This document shows positions 2,543-2,763 of a stretch of 30,608 bases of DNA, piece by piece (positions within the stretch are counted from its first letter, which is position 1; every line of letters begins with the position of its first letter). The stretch covers positions 1 through 30,608 of the forward strand of contig CAKZTQ010000001.1 in the NCBI GenBank assembly GCA_937921735.1, in the 5' to 3' direction. A program made the translations under genes and the position numbers. Under the pieces are notes generated by a model. The model made no database searches, was not told where the DNA came from, and worked only from the letters and a program-made list of their open reading frames with translations. The stretch is from an uncultured archaeon (GTDB taxonomy: Archaea > Hadarchaeota > Hadarchaeia > Hadarchaeales > Hadarchaeaceae).

Positions 2543-2719
2543 TGGCGCCGGGGAGAGGAATTTCGGCCGGCTCGCCGCCGGCTCTCGAACCTCTGACCAC
2601 CCGGTTGCAGCGCTCCGGCGCGTCGTTCGAGGCGATTGAGGTTCGCTCTTCATTCGCGCCGGGCTTAACAGCCGGGCACTCTACCTGCTGAGCTTTCGGG
2701 CCCTTATCGGTACCCCGGC
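2543..2719 (-). tRNA. tRNA-Asn (GTT) with three introns: 8/9 (2695-2711, 17 nt), 37/38 (2606-2665, 60 nt), 59/60 (2560-2583, 24 nt); CCA encoded
   Basis: Removing the three segments gives a 76-nt cloverleaf: GCCGGGG TA GCTC AGCAGGTA GAGT G CCCGG CTGTTAA CCGGG TGGTC AGAGG TTCGAGT CCTCT CCCCGGC G CCA. Each junction falls at the predicted cut sites of a bulge-helix-bulge motif. Confidence 0.9.
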
Positions 2720-2730
2720 ATTCCCCGGCA
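2713..2730 (-). repeat. Direct repeat TGCCGGGG, two copies 10 nt apart (leader copy and tRNA-Asn acceptor 5' strand)
   Basis: The minus strand reads TGCCGGGGAA TGCCGGGGTA. Confidence 0.9.
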
Positions 2731-2750
2731 ATACTACTTCATGTGCAGAG

Positions 2751-2763
2751 CTCTAAAAGCTTT
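2751..2763 (-). promoter_or_regulatory. Putative BRE/TATA of tRNA-Asn
   Basis: AAAGCTTTTAGAG on the minus strand. The same AAAGCTTT pattern precedes the BlaI-like gene (22531-22542). Spacing puts the start site near 2729-2731. Confidence 0.5.

Follow-up and report, generated by a model that had tools for sequence, protein, structure and literature searches.

The stretch of DNA considered here (the window, 30,608 nucleotides of contig CAKZTQ010000001.1) belongs to the genome bin of an uncultured member of the Hadarchaeota (~1.06 Mb, 83% complete), and the element of interest lies in the leader of its gene for tRNA-Asn(GTT). This gene, located on the minus strand (2719..2543) and 3' of the genes for topoisomerase VI B and A, is made of four exons and three introns, inserted between tRNA nucleotides (nt) 8 and 9, 37 and 38, and 59 and 60, each bounded by a bulge-helix-bulge (BHB) splicing motif (Table 1). 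Its leader carries a second version of the 5' strand of the acceptor stem, and this copy probably serves in the precursor as a decoy in cis, holding the 3' acceptor strand during removal of the intron at 8/9.

Table 1. Coordinates of the tRNA-Asn(GTT) gene and of its upstream elements in the window.
Feature	Position	Strand	Basis or remark
TATA-like box TTTTAGAG, putative tRNA-Asn promoter	2751..2758	-	consensus match only, spacing compared with relatives
Candidate leader decoy: T + GCCGGGGA, positions -11 to -3	2722..2730	-	complementary to G73 and nt 72-65
Spacer AT, 2 bases, between decoy and tRNA +1	2720..2721	-	sequence
Exon 1, tRNA nt 1-8; nt 1-6 in the 8/9 BHB	2712..2719	-	BHB search
Intron 8/9, 17 nt, hBHBh', inner and outer helices 2 bp each	2695..2711	-	BHB search, covariation in relatives
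Exon 2, nt 9-37, with the D arm, the anticodon GTT and the 5' half of the anticodon arm	2666..2694	-	
Intron 37/38, 60 nt, relaxed BHB: central pairs 3/4, outer helix 4 bp	2606..2665	-	
Exon 3, tRNA nt 38-59	2584..2605	-	
Intron 59/60, T loop, 24 nt, perfect hBHBh' (4/4 central, inner and outer pairs)	2560..2583	-	
Exon 4, nt 60-76 with encoded CCA; 3' acceptor strand 66-72 = 2553-2547	2543..2559	-	

The intron borders were set by reading the sequence together with a search for BHB motifs, for which the definition in the methods of bioRxiv 10.64898/2026.10.13.758758 was applied and the endonuclease types were taken from PMC5829648, in both cases as given in the accessible parts of these sources. 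By that definition, the 8/9 and 59/60 introns qualify as hBHBh', and the 37/38 intron, with three of the four central pairs, as a relaxed BHB. Excision of the three introns in silico yielded a 76-nt product that ARAGORN called as a canonical tRNA-Asn(gtt) with an encoded CCA, in which TCCCCGGC represents nt 65-72 (2554-2547) and is followed by G73 (2546) and the CCA (2545-2543). The intron-bearing gene itself was missed by ARAGORN, by Rfam at the gathering threshold and by a whole-genome search with RF00005, and a scan for promoters and terminators with bacterial models, which are not applicable to archaea, returned nothing. No second tRNA-Asn was found in the assembly and, therefore, the 8/9 intron must be spliced. 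A gene for EndA (PF01974, 121.7 bits, at G000:C32:72444-72701) and an RNase P RNA (201 bits) are both present in the same genome. Numerous disrupted tRNA genes had previously been noted in Hadesarchaea, according to the part of PMC5829648 consulted.

In the 8/9 BHB, the outer helix is formed by nt 1-2 and nt 10-11 and the central helix by nt 3-6 and a CCCG sequence of the intron, with two bulges of 3 nt each (GTA and AAA). A preliminary description of this DNA had claimed that this motif consumes nt 1-6 of the tRNA and is thus incompatible with the acceptor stem, made of seven G/C pairs, and the BHB search confirmed it: since nt 1-6 are needed by the BHB, the motif and the acceptor stem are mutually exclusive. 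The pairing is conserved in 23 relatives, as 95.2% of the cells were paired, compared to 23.8-40.4% when the partners were slid. The inner helix, which has two pairs in the window and up to four in the relatives, includes three pairs with compensatory changes among these 23 sequences. The covariation score of the motif was reached by none of 500 shuffles.

The leader copy, GCCGGGGA, is found where that description had placed it, at 2729-2722 on the minus strand, ten bases upstream of the tRNA's 5' end at 2719, and its full complementarity to TCCCCGGC (2554-2547) is borne out by the sequence. The resulting helix reaches 9 bp when T2730, opposite G73, is counted. Within the window alone, the improbability of such a copy is suggestive only: the 8-mer occurs four times on both strands versus 2.94 expected, and the probability of finding a copy by chance in a given 25-nt leader is ~1e-3. 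It is the comparative data that carry the weight. As a background, the leader helix does not exceed 6 bp in 31 of the 32 tRNAs detected by ARAGORN in the same genome, whose other intron-bearing tRNAs show short leaders of the ordinary kind, with GGT at their end.

The comparison within the phylum was based on 66 genomes, many of them incomplete bins, in 56 of which the tRNA-Asn gene could be read (55 genes were classified by scan and that of G038 was added by eye), while the other ten gave no match. The 8/9 intron was present in 23 of the 56 genes, and all 23 displayed a contiguous helix of 8-12 bp between leader and 3' strand. Among the 33 genes devoid of the intron, 31 showed a best helix of 3-7 bp or no recognizable copy. 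Genes with both features and genes with neither were found within five GTDB genera (g7, g8, g9, g10 and g11) and within three families, and the 37/38 intron was near-identical in neighboring species whatever the state of the 5' end. Taken together, these two observations imply that, on a gene otherwise inherited vertically, several changes of the 5' features took place, so that the distribution across genera is one of several independent transitions, with the copy tracking the intron each time. For this comparison lineages were defined by their GTDB genus and family labels, given that topoisomerase VI B, because of its intein-sized insertions and divergent copies, was unsuitable for a tree. 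A scan of metagenomes keyed only to the borders of the 8/9 intron, which makes no use of the leader, retrieved 26 contigs, all of them with a leader copy and 25 with a helix of 8-12 bp (the remaining one, L157, is truncated at the 3' side). The same border pattern, searched over 185,579 species genomes, matched in Hadarchaeota only (22 records). The preliminary description had singled out relatives carrying the 8/9 intron but no leader copy as one of the observations that would refute it; none was encountered among the 23 genome and 26 metagenome sequences from Hadarchaeota.

Pooling these sources provided 42 distinct intron-bearing tRNA-Asn sequences, whose leaders were registered on the base opposite C72, because MAFFT right-aligned the copies and lost the register. 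At leader positions -1' to 7', pairing is found in 90-100% of the sequences, the base preceding the copy (opposite G73) is always T or C, and the third position of the copy is C in 37 cases and T, allowing a G.U pair, in the other five. Where a copy lacks one or two G at its end, it follows a TGGC or TGGT block that pairs with G73-CCA, and several decoys retain such a block ahead of their copy; pairing at positions -2' to -4' occurs in 55-62% of the sequences. In 79% of the cases the eighth base, which falls outside the copy of the 7-nt acceptor strand, is paired with nt 65, and it is A in none of seven sequences with C65 and in 22 of 35 with T65 (Fisher p=0.003, uncorrected for phylogeny). 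The distance from the start of the copy to +1 ranges from 8 to 11 nt in the relatives, and the leader sequence tracks the acceptor sequence of each tRNA. Changes in the leader mostly preserve pairing (through G.U pairs or extension to 73-76 or 64-65) and not identity.

A scan of the collected loci for doubled 5' strands revealed a second case, the tRNA(CAU) of genome G010. This gene, whose acceptor sequence is GGGCCCG, bears an intron at 9/10 with a strict BHB that uses nt 2-7, and its leader consists of GGT followed by GGGCTTG, a G.U-tolerant version of the 5' strand able to form 10 bp with nt 66-75; the tRNA-Asn of the same genome has neither intron nor copy. The phylum was then searched with the G010 gene, and all genes with GGGCCCG and a CAU anticodon in the collected loci were classified. 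Each of the ten distinct genes with a 9/10 intron had a leader copy of 6-10 bp, G.U variants included, located at -6 to -12. Without that intron, the best helix spanned 3-6 bp in 28 of 29 distinct genes and 7 bp (at -22) in the other one. The combination of a 9/10 intron and a matching leader copy was also found in the tRNA-Lys(CUU) of G017, which has the same acceptor sequence. From genome to genome, the presence of the intron in one family is independent of that in the other, and in each gene the copy goes with the intron: in the genome of the window, the tRNA-Asn has intron and copy and the tRNA(CAU), at 1371-1465, has neither, and the reverse holds for G010, G003, G054, G048 and G008. The tRNA at 1371-1465 of the window (minus strand), which is the counterpart of this second decoy family without the 9/10 intron, has the anticodon CAT, the acceptor sequence GGGCCCG and an intron in the region of the anticodon stem; the name given to it by ARAGORN, Pyl(cta) or Met(cat), depends on the settings.

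Beyond the Hadarchaeota, the species genomes were scanned for the borders of the 9/10 intron alone. From the 90 matches, 23 were excluded (bacterial or otherwise unassigned records, all of them not tRNA-like), and the remaining 67 archaeal loci were deduplicated. A strict tally of the 38 distinct genes from Bathyarchaeia gave a leader helix of at least 7 bp, and up to 14 bp, in 34 of them, which became 36 once the misplaced 3' ends of L240 (9 bp) and L271 (8 bp) were corrected. All 17 distinct genes from Hadarchaeota with a 9/10 intron showed a helix of at least 6 bp, and single genes from Geothermarchaeota, Hecatella and an unclassified archaeon (L248) formed leader helices of 7, 8 and 10 bp, respectively. 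In another three loci no 3' end could be detected; a copy was recognized by eye in L237 and L263 and none in L199. One record, L197, is labeled Candidatus Acidoferrum, although it contains an archaeal intron-containing tRNA with a leader and 5' region as in Bathyarchaeota L229; the contig was probably mis-binned in a bacterial metagenome-assembled genome. The expectation that leader copies and acceptor-proximal introns would co-occur in related genomes thus held for three tRNA species and at least two phyla, and failed for Micrarchaeota, for the unclassified archaea L220 and L223, and for two genes of Bathyarchaeia. The introns of the Micrarchaeota loci (L198, L217, L222, L250, L256, L262 and L281) are of the same 9/10 type, and some have long inner helices (L198).

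The energetic consequences of the copy were evaluated with ViennaRNA under hard constraints at 37 °C, as the energy of the BHB fold minus that of the acceptor-stem fold (medians, in kcal/mol). For tRNA-Asn (n=42), this difference amounted to +11.6, ranging from 6.2 to 17.7, when the leader was left out and to -0.5 when the leader helix was included, and for tRNA(CAU) (n=10) it shifted from +7.4 to -3.6; the picture was unchanged at 70 °C. When the precursor of the window was folded without constraints, the decoy paired with the 3' strand in the minimum free energy structure, and removal of the leader restored the normal acceptor stem. Therefore, folding with and without the leader, as the preliminary description had suggested, indicated by both constrained energies and minimum free energy folds that the leader offsets the cost of losing the acceptor stem.

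The TATA-like box that had been noted at 2751-2758 is present as a consensus match. In most intron-bearing relatives, a similar box (YTTATAGR or YTTATGR) was read by eye at ~26-33 nt upstream of the copy, and in intron-less genes at ~29-35 nt upstream of +1. On the basis of this spacing, with an error of ~3 nt, the likely transcription start coincides with the copy or precedes it by a few bases, which is consistent with the earlier proposal of a start near the leader copy. The earlier of these predicted starts coincide with the extra TGGC/TGGT block that precedes the copy.

All these observations could be integrated by assuming that the leader of pre-tRNA-Asn acts as a cis decoy of the 5' acceptor strand, and we consider it probable that it holds the 3' acceptor strand during intron removal. 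The core of this model, the decoy strand, appears strongly supported by comparison and energetically plausible. Briefly, transcription would start at or just before the decoy, and the local BHB hairpin would form first. The 3' acceptor strand, emerging ~170 nt later, would be captured by the still unpaired decoy, through 9 bp in this gene and 8-12 bp in the relatives, so that the BHB would be spared. EndA and a ligase would then excise the 8/9 intron, and the freed 5' strand, tethered beside the decoy, would swap in to form the true acceptor stem. Finally, cleavage by RNase P at -1/+1 would discard the decoy and make the exchange irreversible. A broader formulation, which we hold to be about as likely to be right as wrong, is that in Hadarchaeota, Bathyarchaeia and probably wider Thermoproteota every intron that borrows the 5' acceptor strand has a leader decoy. 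The decoy would represent a strand-exchange device that enables splicing, orders splicing before 5' maturation and permits intron gain; the genus g16 would be an intermediate, and DPANN lineages with an epsilon2-type endonuclease would manage without it.

A number of findings weigh against this model. Once the intron is removed, the leader helix is still favored over the true acceptor stem (medians of -3.9 and -3.5 kcal/mol for tRNA-Asn and tRNA(CAU), respectively); the displacement of the leader after splicing, as initially proposed, is thus not favored by secondary-structure energies, the leader helix being equal or stronger, and must rely on tertiary folding, temperature and the irreversible cleavage by RNase P. 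In comparison with shuffled sequences, the stability of the local 5' hairpin is unremarkable (z ~-0.3). Regarding the transcription start, in family f2 the predicted site may fall inside the copy. One RNA raw-read run gave 0 reads on the stretch and two other runs corresponded to DNA contigs of the unspliced form, so that the start site rests on promoter spacing. Since nt 66-76 are invariant, two-sided covariation could be tested at nt 65 alone. Intron and copy lie less than ~30 nt apart, and linkage inflates the raw counts, to which no species tree was applied. Moreover, the association is not strict. Two genes from genus g16 of family f5 (G028, locus L096, and G031, locus L097) have a copy of 10-11 bp without the 8/9 intron, a state that could be either a relic after intron loss or a stage before intron gain, and one further contig end carries a tRNA-Asn copy without an acceptor-proximal intron. 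The same is true for a tRNA-Asp(GTC) of Bathyarchaeia (L273:529-635, minus strand) with a leader helix of 11 bp; the leader segment pairs in this case with the 3' acceptor strand and G73-CC, and the intervening sequence lies in the anticodon and variable region. Conversely, a 9/10 intron is found without any copy in Bathyarchaeia L280 and with only a partial one in L253, and the copy is missing in all seven genes from Micrarchaeota and in the two from the unclassified archaea L220 and L223. The Micrarchaeota genes indicate that the putative decoy is the solution of one lineage and not a universal requirement.

Other explanations for the copy have to be considered. The same helix between leader and 3' strand might provide a different benefit, namely hiding the -1/+1 junction from RNase P and shielding the CCA until splicing has taken place. 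This would fit the frequent extension of the helix into G73-CCA, the copies in L096, L097 and L273, which have no acceptor-proximal intron, and the situation in Micrarchaeota, which have 9/10 introns without a copy and whose seven tRNA 3' ends all lack CCA. However, a role in ordering or protection leaves unexplained the near-confinement of the copies to BHBs that use the 5' acceptor strand, and the other multi-intron tRNAs of the genome of the window make do with ordinary short leaders; we regard this explanation as unlikely. It is quite improbable, in turn, that the copy is a non-functional scar, a short tandem duplication generated at intron gain or by replication slippage and kept by linkage. 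It is true that the two copies in the window make up a nearly perfect tandem repeat of 10 nt, that no more than 30 nt separate intron and copy and that g16 presents the duplication without the intron, but flanks, spacers and intron loops have diverged and yet the helix stays at 8-12 bp in 42 distinct sequences. Furthermore, the changes preserve pairing and not identity (through G.U pairs, outward extension as far as 73-76 and a base 8' that matches nt 65), and the design recurs with another acceptor sequence and in another phylum and is missing in 31 of 33 intron-less tRNA-Asn genes.

An alternative that does not invoke the RNA at all is that the block represents the ancestral +1 region, retained for transcription initiation as a promoter-proximal or initiator element. 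In its favor, the distance between copy and TATA box nearly equals that between +1 and TATA box in intron-less genes. Against it, initiator elements span 2-3 nt, and not 8-12, the block differs from one tRNA to another in step with the acceptor sequence, and the only changes it accepts are those that allow pairing; we consider this notion very improbable. Lastly, the upstream copy could be thought of as the real 5' exon of a leaderless tRNA from which a longer intron is removed, as its proximity to the predicted start might suggest. A T at tRNA position 8 is nearly universal, and the mature product has it; in that register, position 8 would be A or G. In addition, the bases following the copy vary (A, G, T or C), its distance to +1 varies from 8 to 11 nt, inspection of the inner BHB helix for that register reveals one pair at most, and it is the downstream copy that yields a canonical tRNA-Asn. 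This possibility, which is hardly credible, was rejected on the grounds of position 8, spacing and BHB register. An attachment-site repeat for an integrase, in which an inserted element with the integrase gene separates direct repeats of tens of bases of the tRNA, was rejected as well, as the copy has a length of 8-9 nt and a distance of 2 nt to the gene; the neighboring genes encode topoisomerase VI A and B as well as a DHH-family protein.

Besides the decoy, other features of this locus deserve mention. The sequence of the 60-nt 37/38 intron (2606-2665, minus strand) is conserved across the whole phylum. Its terminal stem, together with a bulge of 3 nt and tandem GA/GA, resembles a K-turn or a box C/D-like core, and 8 nt of it are complementary to the 5' T-stem and T-loop of this tRNA; the intron could act as an intron-borne guide or folding element. 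A search of positions 2500-2800 against Rfam at a permissive threshold gave only sub-threshold chance matches (the best one being snoU82P, with 19.7 bits versus a cut-off of 42). The idea that this intron works as a C/D guide replacing Trm56 was dismissed as a simple replacement, since Trm56 (PF01994) is encoded in the same genome and in 39 of the 66 genomes; it was found in two of 14 genomes from genus g7, both as weak, broken matches, and in none from g8 and g10. A further conserved intron, in the D-loop/D-stem, is found in many tRNA-Asn relatives (L007, L019, L020, L022, L024, L085, L086, L089, L092 and L100); its 3' part corresponds to CTTCGCCTAAAG or a close variant, and its presence varies independently of that of the 8/9 intron. 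With respect to the neighboring topoisomerase VI B gene, the matches are split over open frames of ~1050 amino acids in several Hadarchaeota, in what by appearance is an intein-like insertion, and other genomes of the phylum contain only a version with 40-44% identity (these peculiarities concern G010:C21, G006:C19, G023:C7 and G061:C124, and also G002, G013, G020, G028, G031, G034 and G039).

How a precursor adopts a splicing motif that is incompatible with the cloverleaf is a long-standing question for introns at sites other than the anticodon loop, and the proposed decoy offers a concrete, testable answer for those that lie beside the acceptor stem. Its recurrence points to a helper element in tRNA maturation that may have gone undescribed. 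The model predicts an obligatory order of processing and suggests a route for the gain and loss of acceptor-proximal introns, for which Hadarchaeota and Bathyarchaeia, with the decoy, and Micrarchaeota, without it, provide a natural contrast. From a practical point of view, a simple sequence rule could aid in the detection of heavily interrupted tRNA genes, such as those missed by ARAGORN and Rfam. In the accessible parts of the literature searched (including PMC5829648, PMC4090602, PMC4033280, PMC3218864, PMC3293823, PMC2237900 and bioRxiv 10.64898/2026.10.13.758758), with supplements and subscription journals outside the search, no leader element that frees an acceptor strand was described; on non-canonical BHB introns, these texts deal with the intron and its motif. 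The supplements that might bear on this point are the tables of PMC5829648, with tRNA predictions for Hadesarchaea, and Supplementary Note 3 of bioRxiv 10.64898/2026.10.13.758758, on acceptor-stem introns.

Among known systems, the split tRNAs of Nanoarchaeum equitans and Caldivirga are similar to the proposed decoy in that, as far as the consulted parts of PMC4090602, PMC4033280 and PMC3293823 describe them, an external G/C-rich stretch pairs so that the BHB forms and EndA acts, and is later discarded. However, in these parts of the sources the strands of split tRNAs are located on separate transcripts, pair with each other, flank the BHB directly and are removed by EndA. The decoy, in contrast, belongs to a single transcript and pairs with exon nt 65-73, ~150 nt away and outside the BHB; it would occupy the competitor strand and would presumably be removed by RNase P. 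In the window there is one contiguous gene (2719-2543) with a single TATA-like box, and not separate transcription units, and the leader pairs with an exon and adjoins no BHB, instead of pairing with another flank beside it. The decoy also differs from the ordinary pairing between leader and CCA, which continues the true acceptor stem, as it competes with that stem. Here, positions -1 and -2 are T and A, of which only the T could wobble with G73, and the complementary block extends from -11 to -3. In most tRNAs of the genome of the window (for instance, G000:C11:105907, C39:5711 and C4:22271), the leader ends in GGT before +1 and NCCA is encoded, and such leaders can lengthen the acceptor stem by 3-4 pairs; the TATA spacing suggests that these ordinary leaders are only a few bases long. 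Finally, attenuators and the expression platforms of riboswitches share with the decoy the existence of two exclusive helices that compete for one strand, the order of transcription being decisive, but in the case of the decoy no ligand or ribosome would intervene, and it would be the excision of the intron that triggers the switch.

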